In this document: positions 5,134-54,803 of the stretch, in pieces
Numbering within the stretch: the first letter of the stretch is position 1
Layout: the number at the start of each line of letters is the position of its first letter
NCBI GenBank assembly: GCA_027317865.1
Contig: DAHVQG010000004.1
Coordinates: forward strand, 96,001-160,000
Length of the DNA stretch: 64,000 nucleotides
Reading direction: 5' to 3'
DNA from: Bdellovibrionales bacterium
GTDB taxonomy: Bacteria; Bdellovibrionota; Bdellovibrionia; Bdellovibrionales; UBA1609
Program-made: the position numbers and the translations under genes
The notes under the pieces: model-generated
The model's input: the letters and a program-made list of their open reading frames with translations, nothing else
Databases searched by the model: none
Told to the model about the DNA's origin: nothing

Positions 5134-6523
5134 AGCTCTCATTGTTGATGATGAACCGGAATTGAGAAAATCAGTCGAATCTATTTTGCGGTCTGTTCTA
5201 TCGGACTATGACTGGACCATTATTGAGGCCGAAAACGGTAAAACGGCGGTCGAGGCGGTGCACGCGCAGTCGTTCGATTTAGTTTTAATGGACGTACGCA
5301 TGCCGGAGATGAACGGTCTCGATGCCCTTCGCGCCATCAAAGAAATAGATCCGCGAATTTTTGTCGTTATCATGACCGCGCATAGTAATTTACAGGATGC
5401 GGTTACGGCTATCAAGTACGGGGCTTTTGACTATACCGAAAAGCCGATCGAACCGGCAAAATTGGTCGATCTCGTTAAACGCGCGATCGAAACAAAAGAA
5501 ATGGTTTCAAATATTGTGCTCTCGAACCCGATACTTGACGACGACGTTGATTCGAAGTTTGTCGGCGCCTCAGAAAAGATGCGTGAAGTTTTCAACCTCA
5601 TCGACCGGCTGGCCCACGTCGACACAACCGTTCTCATTCGTGGCGAAAACGGAACCGGAAAAGAACTCGTGGCACGCGCCATTCACCAAAACTCGCCGCA
5701 AAAGCACGGTCCGTTTGTAGCGATAAATTGCGGCGCGATTCCCGATACTTTAATGGAGAGCGAGCTCTTCGGCCATGAACGCGGATCGTTTACCGGCGCA
5801 ATCGAACGAAAAATAGGCAAATTTCAGCTCGCAAACAAAGGAACGCTATTTTTAGACGAAATCGGTGAGTTAAAGCCCGATCTTCAGGTGAAGCTTTTAC
5901 GCGTATTGCAGGAGCGAAAATTCATGCCCATCGGCTCCAACCGCGAAGTCCGATCGAATGCGCGCATCATTGCCGCGACCAACCGGAATCTTGAAAAAAT
6001 GATTGAGGATGGAACTTTTCGCGAAGATTTCTTTTATCGCTTAAACGTTATGCCCATTTTCATGCCACCTCTGCGCGAACGGCTGGATGATCTCGGCGAT
6101 CTTATCCGGTTTTTTATCGGGAAGTTCAATAAAAAGCTGAATCTGTCGATTACGGGCATCACTCCCGAGGCGCTTGATATATTGAGCCGGTATCGTTGGC
6201 CCGGTAACATTCGCGAACTTGAAAACGCCATCGAGCGCGCGTTCATTATCGAAAATTCAAATGTGATCACGGTGCGTTCGTTGCCAGAAAAAATCGTTAA
6301 TGAAATCAAAAATAAATCGACCATCCCCATGTCAGGCAAATACACGGGGCCCCTAAACTATGATTTATTTAAAGAAGCAGCCGAAAAAGAATTTATCGAA
6401 AGCGCCTTGAGGGCGAACGACGGTAAAATAAATAAAACGGTCGCACACGCAAATATCCCGAAAAACACACTCTTGCGAAAAATTAAAAAGTACAATATCG
6501 ACGTCGGCAAATTCTCAAAGTGA
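5117..6523 (+). CDS. Sigma54-dependent response regulator (NtrC/AtoC family)
   Basis: Receiver domain (LIVDD, LMDVRMP), AAA+ domain GENGTGKE, GSFTGA loop, LFLDEIG and WPGNIRELEN, C-terminal Fis-type HTH. AAGGAG RBS before ATG 5117. Confidence 0.93.
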   Translation: MRLTLKALIVDDEPELRKSVESILRSVLSDYDWTIIEAENGKTAVEAVHAQSFDLVLMDVRMPEMNGLDALRAIKEIDPRIFVVIMTAHSNLQDAVTAIKYGAFDYTEKPIEPAKLVDLVKRAIETKEMVSNIVLSNPILDDDVDSKFVGASEKMREVFNLIDRLAHVDTTVLIRGENGTGKELVARAIHQNSPQKHGPFVAINCGAIPDTLMESELFGHERGSFTGAIERKIGKFQLANKGTLFLDEIGELKPDLQVKLLRVLQERKFMPIGSNREVRSNARIIAATNRNLEKMIEDGTFREDFFYRLNVMPIFMPPLRERLDDLGDLIRFFIGKFNKKLNLSITGITPEALDILSRYRWPGNIRELENAIERAFIIENSNVITVRSLPEKIVNEIKNKSTIPMSGKYTGPLNYDLFKEAAEKEFIESALRANDGKINKTVAHANIPKNTLLRKIKKYNIDVGKFSK

Positions 6524-22961: not shown

Positions 22962-23036
22962 ATCCCCCCCTTATCTGAATCGTTCGACTCAGACATTAAG
23001 ATTCGTGAACAATACCATTTTCATTTGCAAGTCACT

Positions 23037-30874: not shown

Positions 30875-31795
30875 TCAAAAACACGACCGAGACACATACC
30901 CACGCTTGCTCCCGACCTGAACCTCAACCCAGCCGTTAATCACTTGATAAAGTGCGTAGCGGTGCCCTCTATAAATTTCACCGATTTTATTGGCACCACC
31001 GTCAGCCTGCGCCAGCACATCGCAGTTATACTTTGGTGCGCGCGCAATGACTTCTGTGGGAATTGAACTGACTTGCCGTTGTATTTGATTTCGCGCCGTC
31101 CGCATTTTGTTTTTTGCTTCATCCGCACGAAATGCTTTTTCACGCAACACTCGAAGCTGGTCATTTAGCACCTTTTGCTTGCGCCTCAATTGGATGATGT
31201 CTCTGGCGATTGCTTCGGTTTGCACTTTGTCCTGCTCAACCGTATTTTGAAGTTTCAAATTTTCACTTCTCTGCTGCGCAAGCTTTTGCGCGAGGTTTGT
31301 CTTCTGTGTCTTAGCCATCTGCAATTCGGAATTTGTGATTTTAAGTCTCGTCTTCGTCGCAGAGACCTTTGCCTCAATCTCAGCAACCCATTTCTTTGAG
31401 ACTTCTATTTGATGCTTGTAGAGACGCTCCATTCTTCGCTCTTGTGCGATTTGCCGGTCATAAATGCCGATCTGCCGCTTAGCAATGGCTTGCTTGATTT
31501 TAGCTTCATGTATTTGACGTATAGCCTGTAGGCGTAACTTTTCTTCGGCGAGCTTTTCTTCATGGTCTTGGCGTCGAAGTTGTGCGGCTTCCGTTCGCGC
31601 CTGAATAGAATTAGAAATCACGGAATCGACGTCACTCTCGACATCGTTGACGCTTTCAGCATGAGCCCGCTCAATACAAAAGCCGGTCACCGCTTCACCG
31701 GACAAAAGTGGAGATGTGAAGCCCGCAAAAACTAACCCGACTAATAGCAATAGCGCTCGAACAAGTTGATGTTTAGACGGCAATCCAATCTTCAT
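30875..31795 (-). CDS. Exported coiled-coil protein with C-terminal SH3b-like domain
   Basis: N-terminal hydrophobic segment, ~200-aa heptad-rich region, C-terminal KIGEI..G.....NGWVEV...KRGYV. Confidence 0.72.
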   Translation of the reverse strand: MKIGLPSKHQLVRALLLLVGLVFAGFTSPLLSGEAVTGFCIERAHAESVNDVESDVDSVISNSIQARTEAAQLRRQDHEEKLAEEKLRLQAIRQIHEAKIKQAIAKRQIGIYDRQIAQERRMERLYKHQIEVSKKWVAEIEAKVSATKTRLKITNSELQMAKTQKTNLAQKLAQQRSENLKLQNTVEQDKVQTEAIARDIIQLRRKQKVLNDQLRVLREKAFRADEAKNKMRTARNQIQRQVSSIPTEVIARAPKYNCDVLAQADGGANKIGEIYRGHRYALYQVINGWVEVQVGSKRGYVSRSCF

Positions 31796-31811
31796 AGTTC
31801 ACTCCAACTTC

Positions 31812-31838
31812 ATATCGGCAGTTTCATTTAAATGTATA
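31812..31838 (-). promoter_or_regulatory. Putative sigma28 (FliA) promoter
   Basis: Minus strand TATA-N15-GCCGATAT just upstream of the GGAG RBS of the 31795 gene (consensus TAAA-N15-GCCGATAA). Confidence 0.6.
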
Positions 31839-31950
31839 AATTTCAGGACCATACCCATTTTAGCACCTGCATCAATGTGTAGTTCCAGATTGGAGTTAAC
31901 TTTATCTGCAATATAAAAGGAGCTGATGGCAAATTTGCGCGGCCTAGACT

Positions 31951-31967
31951 TTGGCATAGGGATTGCT
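31951..31967 (+). promoter_or_regulatory. Sigma54 (RpoN) -24/-12 promoter
   Basis: TTGGCAT-AGGGA-TTGCT: GG at 31953-54 and GC at 31965-66 with exact GG-N10-GC spacing. Confidence 0.75.
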
Positions 31968-31977
31968 ACATGTTCTA

Positions 31978-32031
31978 AGCATCCCCCCTTGGCGGCCTGG
32001 CCCCCCTTACCCTCCAGGTCGCTTTTTTTTT
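31978..32031 (+). ncRNA. Candidate sigma54-dependent small RNA with C-rich single-stranded segments
   Basis: Starts 12 nt after the -12 box; two CCCCCCTT motifs; ends in a 9-bp stem plus T9. Confidence 0.6.
31992..32031 (+). terminator. Intrinsic terminator
   Basis: Stem GCGGCCTGG/CCAGGTCGC, 13-nt loop CCCCCCTTACCCT, then nine T. Confidence 0.8.
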
Positions 32032-32056
32032 GCCCAAAATCGTTTAACCTGAATGT

Positions 32057-32815
32057 ATGCTTTCGTTTTTTGGGCTTTTATTTTTTCTGCCGGCCGCGTT
32101 TGCGTTTCAAGTGTTTTTAGATGCGGGACATGGCGGTCAAGATCGAGGCGCCAGTTACGGAAAAATCGTCGAAAAAACGATTGCTTTAAGCGTCACCAAA
32201 CGGGTCGGCCAATTGTTGGAACAGCACTCGGGGATTCAAGTCACGTACAGCCGAACAACGGACGTGTACCGGTCGCTTCAGCAAAGAGTCAGTATGGCAA
32301 ACAAGGATCACCCAAATCTTTTTTTGAGTATTCATGTAAACGCATCGCCCGATCGCCGGGCTTGTGGACCCGATATTTATTTTCAGAACGTTTTAGATCC
32401 TGACCAAGAAACTTTGTTTTTGGCTAACCTCGAAAATCAAAATCTTCGTGACGCGAGCAATTCTCGCCCCTCTGAACACTATGTCAAAGATCCCGATGTA
32501 AACGCTATCATCGATGATCTGGAACGCGACCATCGCATACAGTTGAGCAGTATTTTTTCAGAGGATCTCCGCAAATATTGGGACGGCGATTACGCTGTTA
32601 GCAGTAGCCAAGATATCCGGCAAGCCCCGTTTTATGTGATTAGCAACGTCAATGCTCCAGCCGCATTGCTCGAACTCGGCTATTTGACCAACCCGATCGA
32701 AGGTCCCTTGCTCACTAAAGCCGCGTACCAAAACAAAATTGCCAAAGGTATAGTCAACGCCATAATCAAATACAAAGATGTCGTGGACAAGCGCTCACAA
32801 CAAAGCCTAGATTAA
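32057..32815 (+). CDS. N-acetylmuramoyl-L-alanine amidase (Amidase_3)
   Basis: FLDAGHGG.D.GA, EK, SIHVNA, QAPFYV and LLELGYLTN; signal peptide; no AMIN domain. Confidence 0.92.
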   Translation: MLSFFGLLFFLPAAFAFQVFLDAGHGGQDRGASYGKIVEKTIALSVTKRVGQLLEQHSGIQVTYSRTTDVYRSLQQRVSMANKDHPNLFLSIHVNASPDRRACGPDIYFQNVLDPDQETLFLANLENQNLRDASNSRPSEHYVKDPDVNAIIDDLERDHRIQLSSIFSEDLRKYWDGDYAVSSSQDIRQAPFYVISNVNAPAALLELGYLTNPIEGPLLTKAAYQNKIAKGIVNAIIKYKDVVDKRSQQSLD

Positions 32816-40175: not shown

Positions 40176-41794
40176 TTCACAATCTCCATTTTCTGCGGAT
40201 AAAATTTCATAAGCGAATTCAACGGATAATTTTTGATTCGCGAACTCACGAGATACTGAGACCGGTAAAAGTAAATCGGCACGACAACAGAGTCTTTGTC
40301 GAGCAATAGCTCTTGTGCCTCGTCGTAAAGTTTTTGGCGCTTTTGTTCACTAAACACAGTCGCCGCTTCTCGAACGAGATGATCGTATTTTTTATTGGCC
40401 CAATTCGTGTCATTGTTGGCGTTATCTGACTCGAACAAATTCATAAACGTATTGGCGTCTGGATAATCCGCGATCCATCCGAATCGAAACATCGGATAAG
40501 CTTTCGCCTGCATTGTGCGAAGATACGTTTTCCATTCTTCATTGGTAAGTTCGACTTTGATGCCGAGATTGGTTTTCAATTGCTCCTGGATAATCTCCGC
40601 TATGCGTTCATGATTTTCATCCGTATTGAACGCAATTTTAAGCCGCGGAAATTTCGACCGGTCTTTGTATCCGGCCTCGTCGAGTAATTTTCGCGCTTTC
40701 GCCGGATCGTATTTCGGTCCGATATTCGGATTGTATCCCACGAGTCCCGGTGGAATGAGCGTCGTTGCGGGCATTTCACTTCCGCCCATAATTTTATTAA
40801 TTTGGTCGCGGTTAATGGCCATGTTAATCGCCTGGCGGACTTTCACATTATTAAGCGGCGGCATTTTCACGTTAAGGCCGAAATAATAAACGCCAAGTGT
40901 TGTAACAATTCGATATTGCGGCATCGTCCGCACCGTACGAATGTCATCGCTCGGAATTTCGTCAAGAGCATCGAGCTGGCCGCGATTAAACATGCTAAGC
41001 GCGGTCGATTGATCTTGAACGATAAGCCCCAAAATATATTTAATTTTTGGTTTACGGCCGAAATATCCGTCATTGCGTTGAAGCACGACGGCTTTGCCGT
41101 GATCCCACTTTATTAACTTGTACGCTCCCAGAGTTTGGATGTGACTCGGATCCGTCCAGTGATTTCCCCACTTTGCGATAATATCTTTGCGAATCGGAAA
41201 GGTGCACTCGTTACCCAAAATCGCGGGGAAGAAACTTTCGGGCCGCGCAAGATTGACGACAAGTTCACCTTTTTTGTTGAGTCTGACGCCCACTTTACTG
41301 AAATTTTTAATTTTGCCTTCGAAATAGGCTTTGGCGTTTTTAATTATAAACAAATAATTTGCGTACAAAGCAGCCGTTTTGGGGTTTAGCAATCGCTGCC
41401 AGCTATCAATGATTTGTTGGCCGGTAAATGGAACGCCGTCCGTCCATTTAACATCTTGCCGCAACGTGAACGTCCAAGTTTTCATGTGGTTGGACGACCG
41501 CCAAGAAGCCGCCAAATCAGGCAATACTTGAACTTTACCGTTTTTGAATCCGTAACGAACAAGCCCGTCCATCATCGCATCGGCAATGCGGGAAGAAGTC
41601 GTGTCACTCATTAACGTCCAGTCAAGAGTCGGCGGCTCGGTTATGATGTTCCAACGCAGGGTTTGGTTCAACGGCAGGCCGTAGTCCACCTGGTTTCTGC
41701 GCGTACACGCGGTGATGAAAAAAGCATTGATGATTAAAAACGTGCCGGCCAACAAAGCGGCCGACCGTGCAGATACACGTTGAAAACGGCTCAT
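40172..41794 (-). CDS. oppA: Oligopeptide ABC transporter substrate-binding lipoprotein
   Basis: Lipobox ITAC, EPPTLD, TWTFTLR...WTDG, GAYKL..W and GWIADYPD. Confidence 0.92.
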   Translation of the reverse strand: MSRFQRVSARSAALLAGTFLIINAFFITACTRRNQVDYGLPLNQTLRWNIITEPPTLDWTLMSDTTSSRIADAMMDGLVRYGFKNGKVQVLPDLAASWRSSNHMKTWTFTLRQDVKWTDGVPFTGQQIIDSWQRLLNPKTAALYANYLFIIKNAKAYFEGKIKNFSKVGVRLNKKGELVVNLARPESFFPAILGNECTFPIRKDIIAKWGNHWTDPSHIQTLGAYKLIKWDHGKAVVLQRNDGYFGRKPKIKYILGLIVQDQSTALSMFNRGQLDALDEIPSDDIRTVRTMPQYRIVTTLGVYYFGLNVKMPPLNNVKVRQAINMAINRDQINKIMGGSEMPATTLIPPGLVGYNPNIGPKYDPAKARKLLDEAGYKDRSKFPRLKIAFNTDENHERIAEIIQEQLKTNLGIKVELTNEEWKTYLRTMQAKAYPMFRFGWIADYPDANTFMNLFESDNANNDTNWANKKYDHLVREAATVFSEQKRQKLYDEAQELLLDKDSVVVPIYFYRSQYLVSSRIKNYPLNSLMKFYPQKMEIVK

Positions 41795-41865
41795 TTTACC
41801 CTCCCCCGGTCCTCATTCGTCGGCAATTTTGCCATCGATGTCAATTGTTTTACCTTAAAATATGC

Positions 41866-44385
41866 TCATTCGATACTTTGCCAATTTTCGCGCGGCGACG
41901 GTTTTCGATCGATTTTGACAGGAATGGTGCTGGTCAGCCAAACGGGGCCTACGACGCTATTTTTTCGGGTTTGGCGCGTGTTATGATAGATCTCTGAATA
42001 TAAGATGTAGTTGCGTACGACTTTTTTGACATATTCTCGCGTCTCGACAAACGGAATATGCTCGACAAATTCATCCATATCGAGATTGCCGAACGAGTGT
42101 AGCCACGAATACACGCGCTGTGGCCCTGCATTGTAAGCGGCAGCGACAAGCGGCACGTATCCGTCAAACTGCTTTAAAAGTCGCGCCAAATAGCGCGTAC
42201 CAAGCTCAATGTTATTTTGCGGTTCGATAAGCTGTGCCGCGCTGATCGGCGGATGATGCATTAACTTTTCTAGTTGTTCGGCGGTATAAGGCATCAATTG
42301 AACAAGCCCGCGGGCGCCAACGGCTGAAATCGCATTCGGATTAAATCGGCTTTCGGCCCGCATAATCGCCCATACCATCTGCTCCGGCACTCCAAACCTT
42401 TTGCAATTCTTTTTCACGAATTTCGCATAGGCTCTTGGAAAGGCAAACTGCCAAATGCCCCGTGCCCCGCTCAATCCGCCAACTTGCCGTTCATGTTCAA
42501 AAATACCGTCTTGCGCTATATCAACGGCGCGACCATACGAACCCGCTTCTACATAAGCCGCCATTAGCATATGTAAATATGTTTTATTTCGCGTCCGCCG
42601 TTCGATATCAAACAGTTCGCCATTGGCCCAATCAGATAAACCAAGTTTCATCAGTTCGCTGGCACGTGTAAAACGAAGCCGCAATTTCGGGTCTTTAAAG
42701 GTGCTCACTTGGATGGGCTCACCATTTATATCGACATTGTCGCCGCTGCCGCTCCCATCATTTTCCGAGTTCGCACTGCCATTTGCGTTGGTATCGTCAC
42801 TATCGTCTAACCCTGCTCCCGGCGATAAATCGGGATCATCAGGTGAACTGTTTGCAGCAACTGTTGCCGTCGGGTCACCGGTAATATTCGTTTGCGGCGT
42901 CGGCGCGGATTGCGCTCCTGCAGGTGATTGAGGGGTTTGGGCCAATATTTGTTTGGCCGAAGGCTTCTGCCCGGCAATTTGTGATAAACGTTTTTTGGCT
43001 AGAAAGCTATAGTAGGTCAGACCTGGCTCTTTAGCTAATTGTGAAAATAAAGTGCGGGCTTGGCGGTATTTTTTCTGCCGAAAAAATGACATGGCCAGCC
43101 AGTACCGCGTCCGTTCGTCGCGATACGGATAGCGCACCCACCAATGTTTACGGTGATGCCACCAACTCCAGTAAACAATGCGCTTTTGATAAAGCGCGCG
43201 AAAGGCGTCCTCGGCGCTTTTGTAATGGCCTTTTAAATAATCGATCCATGCCAGCTGCCAGCGCGCTTGTTGGGCGAAATAGGAACCAGGTTCGTGTCGA
43301 ATTATGCTCATGAACCGTTGATCAGCGCCATCATAATCTTGAATTTGGTAGCTCAAATAGGCGGCGCTAAAGTCAGCCCACCGCCCCTCGCTTGAATAGG
43401 GACTGAGCCGGTATGCTTTATCAAATGCCCCGATGGCCGACTGAAATTCGTCGGCTTGTGCCGCGACTCTGCCCAATTGTTCTTGATATTTTAAATTATA
43501 TTTCTTTTGCGCGTAATACTTCACAAGAATTTGGAGCGCTTCGTAGGGATATCCCTGCATTTCATAATACTGAACTAAAAGCATATTGGCCCGTATTTTA
43601 GCTTGCGGGCTGCCAGTTGCATCCGCTTCGGCACGCAATTTGTCTATTTCGCGCTTCGCTTTGTCAGCATGGCCCGCAAGTTGCAGCCGCTCCATCCGCG
43701 TCTCGATGTCTCGTTGCGACGGCGGACAACCGACTTTCATATTGTCCAACTTGTCTTCAACAAGATCGACCCCCCAAGATGCAATTTGCGGATGGGCGGG
43801 GAATCGCGCATACAATTCGCGCGCCCATCGGCATGCGAAATATCGTCGATTCTCTTTTAGTTCCACCTTTAAGAGCGTCACTAATATGTCCGGATATTTT
43901 GGAGAAAATCGCGACCGCCACTGTAAGAACCGCAGATTGTAAAGCGCCGGGCGGAACTGTCCTAATTTAAGCTCAAGTTTACTCATAGAAAAGCGCGCTT
44001 CAATACTGACGTTGCGATTCGGTTTTTCATTCAATGTATTTTGCAAGTCTTCAAGAGCCGCTTGCATATTTTTGCGGCTCTTTGCTTTGCCGTCGTGATC
44101 TTCCGCCTCGGCCATCTTCTCATATATTTCAGCGGACAAAATCGAGCCGCCTTTCAAAGCCGTGTTAAAATCGGTTTTGGCGGCGGCCCAATTCTTGGCC
44201 TTTAATGCTTTTAAACCCAGCGCAAAATTTTGAACGGATTTGTTTTGGACTGATTTATTTTGGGCCCTTTGCTGTTGAAGCGTTTTACTCGGCGCTTGTT
44301 TTGGATTCGCATAGGCCGACGCCGCCGCAATTAAGAGTAGTGACCACAGCAAAACAATAGGTTGCTTAAACGGCGCGAAACGCAT
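41866..44385 (-). CDS. slt: Soluble lytic murein transglycosylase with TPR-like superhelix
   Basis: AIMRAESRF, GARGLVQLMP, AAYNAG and IPFVETREYVKKV. ATG 44385 has a GGGAGG RBS and a signal peptide. Confidence 0.9.
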   Translation of the reverse strand: MRFAPFKQPIVLLWSLLLIAAASAYANPKQAPSKTLQQQRAQNKSVQNKSVQNFALGLKALKAKNWAAAKTDFNTALKGGSILSAEIYEKMAEAEDHDGKAKSRKNMQAALEDLQNTLNEKPNRNVSIEARFSMSKLELKLGQFRPALYNLRFLQWRSRFSPKYPDILVTLLKVELKENRRYFACRWARELYARFPAHPQIASWGVDLVEDKLDNMKVGCPPSQRDIETRMERLQLAGHADKAKREIDKLRAEADATGSPQAKIRANMLLVQYYEMQGYPYEALQILVKYYAQKKYNLKYQEQLGRVAAQADEFQSAIGAFDKAYRLSPYSSEGRWADFSAAYLSYQIQDYDGADQRFMSIIRHEPGSYFAQQARWQLAWIDYLKGHYKSAEDAFRALYQKRIVYWSWWHHRKHWWVRYPYRDERTRYWLAMSFFRQKKYRQARTLFSQLAKEPGLTYYSFLAKKRLSQIAGQKPSAKQILAQTPQSPAGAQSAPTPQTNITGDPTATVAANSSPDDPDLSPGAGLDDSDDTNANGSANSENDGSGSGDNVDINGEPIQVSTFKDPKLRLRFTRASELMKLGLSDWANGELFDIERRTRNKTYLHMLMAAYVEAGSYGRAVDIAQDGIFEHERQVGGLSGARGIWQFAFPRAYAKFVKKNCKRFGVPEQMVWAIMRAESRFNPNAISAVGARGLVQLMPYTAEQLEKLMHHPPISAAQLIEPQNNIELGTRYLARLLKQFDGYVPLVAAAYNAGPQRVYSWLHSFGNLDMDEFVEHIPFVETREYVKKVVRNYILYSEIYHNTRQTRKNSVVGPVWLTSTIPVKIDRKPSPRENWQSIE

Positions 44386-44457
44386 GGGCAAATCGCCTCC
44401 CTTACGGTATGCGCAATAGGTAAAAAAAAATTTTAGGCGATGTGGGGCCATTAAACA

Positions 44458-54770: not shown

Positions 54771-54803
54771 TTATCCCCCAAGCTCAATCGAAATCAAATT
54801 TTA

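Follow-up and report, generated by a model that had tools for sequence, protein, structure and literature searches.

The window considered here is the whole of a 64,000-nucleotide (nt) stretch of the genome of a Bdellovibrionales bacterium (assembly GCA_027317865.1, contig DAHVQG010000004.1, positions 96,001 to 160,000). On its forward strand lies a gene for a predicted small RNA (sRNA) of about 54 nt (31978..32031, + strand), preceded by a sigma-54 promoter and followed by a gene for an N-acetylmuramoyl-L-alanine amidase (32057..32815, + strand; Pfam Amidase_3, 3e-42). On the opposite strand lie oppA, slt, a trypsin-like protease gene and mipA, each of which carries, at its ribosome binding site (RBS), a stretch that is complementary to the RNA. 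A sequence-only reading of the window had taken these four matches as a GcvB/AbcR-like regulon for peptidoglycan turnover and peptide uptake. The follow-up analysis described here favors a different account, to which we assign a probability of roughly 60%: the sRNA gene is real and order-wide, its likely mechanism is the masking of Shine-Dalgarno (SD) sequences that contain runs of G, the four matches are generic and do not make up a regulon, and slt and mipA are unlikely to be targets.

Anatomy and conservation of the RNA gene

The promoter, TGGCAT-N5-TTGCT (TGGCATAGGGATTGCT; 31952..31967, + strand), has GG at 31953-54 and GC at 31965-66. The criterion applied for sigma-54 was a -24 GG and a -12 GC 10 nt apart in TGGCAC-N5-TTGCW, an arrangement that is found at 31952-31967, and the pattern TGGCAY-N5-TTGCW has this single match within the window versus 0.16 expected. 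A spacer of about 11 nt after the promoter leads to a predicted start near 31978, with the 5' end of the RNA being placed from the position of the -12 element. The unpaired 5' part of the predicted transcript reads AGCAUCCCCCCUU, and seed 1 (AUCCCCCCUU; 31981..31990, + strand) is single-stranded in the fold. It is followed by a terminator hairpin (31991..32023, + strand), in which a 10-bp stem formed by 31991-32000 with 32014-32023 (GGCGGCCUGG paired with CCAGGUCGCU) closes a loop of 13 nt, and this loop is seed 2 (CCCCCCUUACCCU; 32001-32013, + strand). The terminator tail of nine T (32023..32031, + strand) is kept in all members of the family. In this RNA, CCCCCCUU is exposed twice, at the 5' end and in the loop of the RNA's own terminator hairpin. 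A terminator and promoter scanner did not list the hairpin because its 13-nt loop exceeds the scanner's limit of 8 nt. Promoter and intrinsic terminator together form a transcription unit of their own, predicted in silico, and the same architecture is present in 35/41 relatives.

Several searches have been used to follow this architecture through related genomes. BLAST with the intergenic region matches 25/41 related genomes, and the conserved part runs from promoter to terminator only. A pattern scan of the genomes of 185,579 species returned at least 120 stretches, many of which are chance terminators in unrelated phyla; among the matches listed, those in Bdellovibrionales, Pseudobdellovibrionaceae, Bdellovibrio and Oligoflexia records nearly all possess the same sigma-54 box, 5' C-run and C-rich loop. 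The full architecture was recovered in 47 loci, representing 40 distinct sequences, and a covariance model built from 21 of these 40 detects the RNA, with E values of 0.01 or better, in the aforementioned 35 of 41 relatives. The model did not find it in G003 (an assembly that is 85% complete), G008, G010, G013, G022 or G023. The sigma-54 element stands at a constant distance from the RNA in the 40 distinct family sequences as well as in the relatives found by the model. In an even sample of the phylum, the RNA was present in 22/151 genomes, all in the window's order; leaving out the genome under study (G000), the counts are 21/23 in that order versus 0/127 in other families. Finally, all seven complete genomes of 3.3-4.0 Mb from one genus of the order (7/7) carry the RNA.

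The stem and the C-runs have both been retained. In the 21-sequence alignment, 210/210 stem cells are paired, 2/10 pairs have changed on both sides and 7/10 are invariant, figures that are biased towards structure because the alignment was chosen with the stem pattern. Better structural evidence is provided by the distant members found by the model, which carry different yet complementary stems. All 36 family sequences possess a C-run of at least five plus a second of at least four (36/36), 28/36 possess two runs of at least five, and the C-runs are unpaired in the predicted folds. Many loops of the family read CCUCCUUA, resembling the 3' end of 16S rRNA; the 16S rRNA of this genome ends GGAUCACCUCCUUUCU. 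With regard to catalogued families, an Rfam scan of the window gave no match at the gathering score, including to sX13, RsaE, cuckoo/ar14, GcvB, AbcR and suhB/MmgR, and a permissive scan of 31900-32080 yielded only the sub-threshold ncS54 (14.7 bits versus 43; E 0.5) and suhB/mmgR (14.0 versus 41; E 1.2). Judged from these comparisons, the element is a real, uncatalogued and conserved sRNA gene, nearly universal in the order that holds Bdellovibrio, with its expression only predicted. The part of it that has been conserved is, by the same comparisons, the seeds, with a C-run of at least five in every one of 36 members.

Matches at four ribosome binding sites

The four string matches between the RNA and the RBSs are exact as they had been described, at every coordinate, and the strand logic behind them (all four genes lie on the minus strand, such that plus-strand identity means complementarity with the mRNA) is correct. 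Pfam likewise upholds the gene names, through SBP_bac_5 for oppA (4e-90), SLT for slt (7e-31), Trypsin for the protease (1e-09) and MipA for mipA (4e-26). In the mRNA sense, all four sites are directly upstream of minus-strand starts, namely oppA ATG 41794, slt ATG 44385, protease TTG 22961 and mipA ATG 54770. At oppA (41796..41804, - strand), the mRNA sequence GGAGGGUAA, inside GGGGGAGGGUAAAAUG, provides 9 contiguous bases that pair with the RNA loop; on the DNA, TTACCCTCC is present at both 32007-32015 and 41796-41804, two bases off the oppA CAT (41792-41794). The slt site (44395..44405, - strand; mRNA GUAAGGGAGGC) rests on GCCCCCCTTAC (32000-32010) versus GCCTCCCTTAC (44395-44405), which agree at 10/11 positions with one A.C mismatch, ten bases off the slt start (44385). 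The protease site is CCCCCCTTA (22965..22973, - strand; mRNA UAAGGGGGG), adjoining the TTG start (22961), and the mipA site is ATCCCCC (54773..54779, - strand; mRNA GGGGGAU), a match of 7 bases adjoining the ATG (54770). Two of the matched RNA stretches include bases of the stem, G32000 in one and C32014-C32015 in the other. The slt and oppA genes are co-directional neighbors, 71 nt apart (41795-41865); they stay adjacent in many relatives from different families, and the two may share a transcript.

An exact match is not necessarily an unusual one, and the frequency of such matches was determined across the whole 2.65-Mb genome. Genes were called by a rough script of our own, based on codon log-odds with the start chosen by SD and codon, which gave 2383 genes and recovered all four start codons assigned in the sequence-only reading. 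For each gene, complementarity was counted as the longest contiguous stretch within -40..+20 that pairs with the unpaired 5' tail or with the loop. Genome-wide, 170/2383 genes possess at least 7 complementary bases and 21/2383 at least 9. For genes of the window, 4/58 have at least 7 bases versus 4.1 expected, and two have at least 9 versus 0.5 expected (Poisson P about 0.09). G-rich sites are common in positions -20..-1 of the 2383 genes, with GGGG in 356, GGGGG in 184 (7.7%), GGGGGG in 62 and GGAGG in 244. Because G-run and GGAGG-type RBSs are so frequent in this genome, any C-rich RNA would match several of them in any 64-kb window.

Pairing energies lead to a similar picture. The protease and oppA, with 9 complementary bases each, hold RNAduplex ranks 21 and 89 of 2383, and mipA and slt, with 7 each, hold ranks 217 and 353. 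Pairing and anti-SD energies are correlated (r 0.58), and the residual ranks after regression on the 16S anti-SD energy are 54 for the protease, 148 for oppA, 162 for mipA and 1414 for slt. A structure-aware cofold, which covers the 5' tail only because loop kissing is beyond its model, ranks them 42, 276, 324 and 1359, in the same order. Composition-preserving shuffled seeds were as good in 133/300 trials for mipA and 57/300 for slt, and for the four genes summed they bind equally well in 88/300. Slt and mipA rank no better than random RBSs (353 and, in the cofold, 1359; 217 and 324), which is the outcome that the sequence-only reading had named as one that would refute it. The protease (21; 42) and oppA (89; 276) do rank high, yet shuffled seeds equal them in 49 and 201 of 300 trials, respectively. 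The set of four matches is what a C-rich sequence gains by chance, and on energy the protease alone stands out.

Comparison with relatives separates the four genes further. Percentiles in other genomes were computed with each genome's own copy of the RNA, and the background RBS set was that of G000. Orthologues of slt occur in 34/40 relatives, of which G005 and G006 are the two closest to this genome; their seeds are identical to those seen here, and the slt site is absent in both, with no SD-like or complementary sequence before the start. Overall, pairing with the RNA of the same genome is in the top decile for 4/21 slt orthologues, with a median percentile of 0.69. For mipA, just GGGG or GAGGGG is kept, within the genus only, and 0/16 orthologues reach the top decile. 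The protease has, besides a 56% paralogue in its own genome, a sole match in a protein of 52% identity in G006, and these are too few for any statement about conservation. The pattern for oppA is different: GGGG or longer is present at the SD in 14/24 genomes that bear the RNA and GGGGG or longer in 8/24, relative to base rates in this genome of 15% and 7.7%, respectively, and GGGG or longer is present in 0/4 genomes where the RNA was not found. Top-decile pairing with the own RNA is seen for 10/23 oppA orthologues versus 4/27 for an unrelated control gene. In five genomes of a second family (f10), no oppA orthologue was found at E 1e-40. Between G000 and G006, the oppA pairing shifts from the loop to the 5' tail, and the G-run is kept while its flanks are not. 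On these sequence comparisons, oppA is plausible as a conserved target and the protease as one particular to this species; slt and mipA are unlikely to be targets.

G-run SD sites and the proposed mechanism

The G-runs matched by the RNA belong to a broader class of RBS. Signal peptides were called by a simple rule of our own, under which 31% of genes are positive. GGGGG occurs at the SD of 112/742 signal-peptide-like genes versus 70/1641 others (odds ratio 3.9, p 5e-18), and genes with such an SD can be read as mostly exported; the corresponding odds ratio for GGAGG is 1.5. When only genes with any recognizable SD are considered, the GGGGG counts are 112/482 versus 70/858. The spacer of the G-runs peaks at 4-6 nt, which is the proper position for an SD, and examples in the window are seen at 22964-22970 and 54775-54779. 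The enrichment recurs in the sister species G006, of which 400 kb were sampled, with proportions of 17/114 versus 16/240 (odds ratio 2.45, p 0.018). Of the G-run SDs of G006, 8/19 are also G-run in G000 across 202 reciprocal-best-hit pairs, GGAGG is kept in 6/17, and there are 2 class switches. G-run SDs are a distinct class whose conservation between the two sister species is similar to that of GGAGG, and this class may be tied to the RNA.

The most likely mechanism, by analogy with the C-rich RNAs discussed below, is the masking of G-run SDs. A sigma-54 activator would switch the RNA on, and its C-runs would pair with G-run SD sequences and thereby block the 30S subunit, independently of Hfq, as is the case for sX13 and RsaE/RoxS. 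The resulting target set would be large and loosely defined, comprising the about 180 genes with GGGGG at the SD. From the sequence-only reading, the notion of a trans-acting RNA that masks G-rich RBSs fits this anatomy; a four-gene regulon with meaningful pairing past the SD core is unsupported, since the matches are at chance level and the slt and mipA sites are unconserved.

Other parts of the proposed circuit are encoded in the genome. An rpoN gene is present, with its Sigma54_CBD domain at C22:3-560; as the contig stops within the gene, a search for the DNA-binding domain found nothing and would wrongly imply that rpoN is absent. In relatives, the gene is complete. Loss of rpoN as the cause of loss of the RNA was considered and rejected, as rpoN is present in all five RNA-lacking genomes tested. 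The genome has about 15 strong Sigma54_activat matches, and no activator gene adjoins the RNA. A gene for a sigma-54 enhancer-binding protein (499-aa frame) lies at about 5561-6058 (C37:101561-102058), at a distance of about 26 kb from the RNA, and a second such gene is found just outside the window on its upstream side. Closer to the promoter, a box containing AATATAA (31905-31925), about 30-45 nt upstream of the -24 element, is kept within the genus (L002-L004, L009); it could be an activator site, an IHF site or the promoter of a divergent gene. Hfq (Pfam PF17209) was not found in this genome, which is 99.2% complete.

In other bacteria, sRNAs with comparable promoters or seeds have been described. 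NrsZ and GlmY are sigma-54-dependent, as are Qrr1-5 and CrcZ/CrcY, which in the published accounts at hand share with the present RNA a GG-N10-GC promoter needing an enhancer-binding activator; their sequences are unrelated and longer, and they act through other seeds or by protein sequestration. GcvB is a post-transcriptional repressor of periplasmic binding-protein genes such as oppA, with a G/U-rich seed that acts on C/A-rich sites and a need for Hfq. RsaE of S. aureus has an opp operon as a target, which would be a parallel to oppA here, and sX13 is about 115 nt long.

The closest functional counterparts are C-rich. For example, sX13 of Xanthomonas campestris pv. vesicatoria represses mRNAs with a run of at least 4 G near the start codon in an Hfq-independent manner (PMC3771888). 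According to the parts of that paper at hand, both RNAs expose unpaired CCCC/CCCCC motifs, and G-rich RBS motifs occur in 5% of Xanthomonas genes versus 7.7% here; sX13 possesses three stem-loops, in contrast to the about 54 nt with one 5' seed and one terminator-loop seed seen here, and those parts describe no sigma-54 promoter (PMC3771888). There is no sequence or Rfam match between sX13 and the present RNA. In RsaE/RoxS of Firmicutes, multiple C-rich regions pair with G-rich SDs and block initiation; as far as the available text of that study goes, these RNAs differ in phylum, in their control (the two-component system ResDE) and in having three or four C-rich regions, and they have no homology to the RNA described here (PMC4409812). 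In the cuckoo/alpha-r14 group (NfeR1, CcsR), hairpin loops carry the anti-SD motif CCUCCUCCC, and confirmed targets in the published sections at hand are mRNAs of periplasmic ABC-transporter binding proteins (PMC4615179, PMC10746234). The likeness lies in the many loops of the present family that carry CCUCCUUA. The differences are that the excerpts on that group report 2-4 hairpins, variable stems and, for NfeR1, a sigma-70 promoter, as opposed to one hairpin, an almost invariant stem and sigma-54 (PMC4615179, PMC10746234), and that the universal motif here is a plain C-run, not CCUCCUCCC. AbcR1/2 are post-transcriptional repressors of periplasmic binding-protein genes, as stated in the portion of the literature at hand (PMC8844928). 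Neither GcvB nor AbcR has an Rfam match here. GcvB compares poorly with this RNA, which has C-rich seeds in a genome where a search for an Hfq gene found none; AbcR, cuckoo, sX13 and RsaE are closer. By its anatomy, and not by homology, the RNA matches the functional class of C-rich, G-tract-targeting, trans-acting sRNAs.

For Bdellovibrio itself, the published RNAs include eight attack-phase RNAs of 98-655 nt (PMC3627812, Table 2) and a hit-locus RNA of 261 nt (PMC3818213). Based on the parts of these papers at hand, they differ in size from the present RNA, with its about 54 nt. A literature search found no paper describing this RNA and no regulatory RNA with an established target for these bacteria.

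Competing explanations and implications

The neighborhood of the RNA bears on more than one of the alternatives. The amidase gene starts 25 nt past the T-run and is essentially without an SD (SD energy -1.3), no sigma-70-like promoter was found in 31750-32150, and a same-strand amidase gene follows the RNA in 18/21 relatives tested, which together with this genome makes 19/22. Transcription reading through from the sigma-54 promoter may serve to express the amidase, or its mRNA may have almost no leader (32032-32059). These observations invite the view that the element is mainly a cis-acting leader, in which the sigma-54 promoter drives an amidase-rph operon and the hairpin and U-tail serve as an attenuator; on this view, the short RNA would be a by-product whose C-runs function in termination control or protein binding and not in pairing in trans. 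Consistent with this, the stem sequence has been kept far beyond what a terminator needs, to judge from the seven pairs that never vary in the 21 sequences. However, the RNA persists beside other neighbors: the gene that follows it encodes an SBP_bac_5 protein in G034, an aconitase in G011 and, on the same strand, a product with no Pfam match in G014, and in G031 and G036 its neighbors are on the opposite strand. In G034, which belongs to another family, the gene in the amidase's place directly downstream of the RNA is for an oligopeptide-type binding protein (C1 1676-3076). Furthermore, a GC-rich stem of 10 bp followed by nine U is a strong terminator, and two exposed C-runs in every member are, in the parts of the literature at hand, characteristic of C-rich RNAs that act in trans (PMC4615179, PMC3771888). 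A predominantly cis-acting role thus seems doubtful, although cis-leader and trans-RNA roles are mutually compatible and not exclusive.

A regulon dedicated to the turnover of peptidoglycan and the uptake of peptides, with extended pairing to oppA, slt, the protease and mipA, has attractive features of its own. Each of the four matches is exact, each of the four proteins is exported or belongs to the envelope, the RNA directly precedes a gene for a cell-wall amidase in those 19 of 22 genomes, slt and oppA are adjacent in many relatives, the RNA of G034 precedes an SBP_bac_5 gene, and the oppA G-run is widely kept. Nevertheless, a set at chance level, an slt site that is missing from the two closest slt-bearing relatives, the failure of all 16 mipA orthologues to reach the top decile, and an oppA pairing that switches from loop to 5' tail between G000 and G006 leave this quite improbable, the more so because four exported proteins are unremarkable when about 31% of genes look exported. 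Wherever a genome abounds in G-run RBSs, an anti-SD-like RNA will always seem to control a thematically coherent set of genes, and of the four genes here, comparison with relatives lends some support to oppA alone. It has also been considered that the RNA binds a protein recognizing C-rich single strands, as a sponge or cofactor, instead of mRNAs. The unusually invariant stem, the identical repeated motif and the lack of conservation of the best sequence-specific target sites would suit such a role, which we consider highly improbable given that two short C-runs are few for a sponge and that the same genomes have many G-run SDs, which are conserved. No candidate protein was found, and no search aimed at one was made.

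The masking of G-run SDs by an order-wide sRNA, the account preferred here, must itself be set beside several results that weigh against it. The 151-nt region folds no better than its shuffles (z 0.11; 102/200 shuffles equal it), and the case for the RNA rests on conservation for this reason. The relatives in which that conservation is seen are not phylogenetically independent, and the oppA score is perhaps partly explained by a generally strong SD. The best sites genome-wide, which are both at start codons of genes without a Pfam family, comprise 13 bases complementary to the whole loop (C8:3505-4299, a lipoprotein-like gene) and 12 bases complementary to the 5' tail (C37:33047-34378, a gene of 443 aa); as true targets they were rejected, as neither is kept in G005 or G006 despite identical seeds, from which it follows that long matches within one genome predict conservation poorly. 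The link between G-runs and export is weak in the RNA-bearing G009 (odds ratio 1.9, p 0.21) and G027 (1.2, p 0.77), and most of the 41 genomes show an excess of G6-N3-9-ATG over a reversed control that does not divide cleanly between genomes with and without the RNA. A clean split of G-run sites with the RNA had appeared when its presence was judged by BLAST, and it dissolved once the covariance model found divergent copies in 10 "negative" genomes. The RNA-lacking G013 and G022 (400-kb samples) have a GC content of 34-35% and few G-runs, and are hence uninformative.

A bolder extension of SD masking can be put forward tentatively, and we regard it as unlikely: in Bdellovibrionales, a run of at least five G at the SD would be a conserved address tag on roughly 8% of genes, mostly for exported proteins of the predatory secretome, such that one poly-C RNA of 54 nt, driven by sigma-54 and encoded beside a cell-wall amidase gene, would control their translation jointly. 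If true, the signal sensed by the sigma-54 activator would throttle many secreted proteins together, and oppA would be an old member of the set. With the RNA present in all seven complete genomes of one genus, it is probably testable in cultured predators. Should the link between G-runs and exported proteins hold, a large post-transcriptional regulon would become recognizable in predatory bacteria by a simple rule of sequence.

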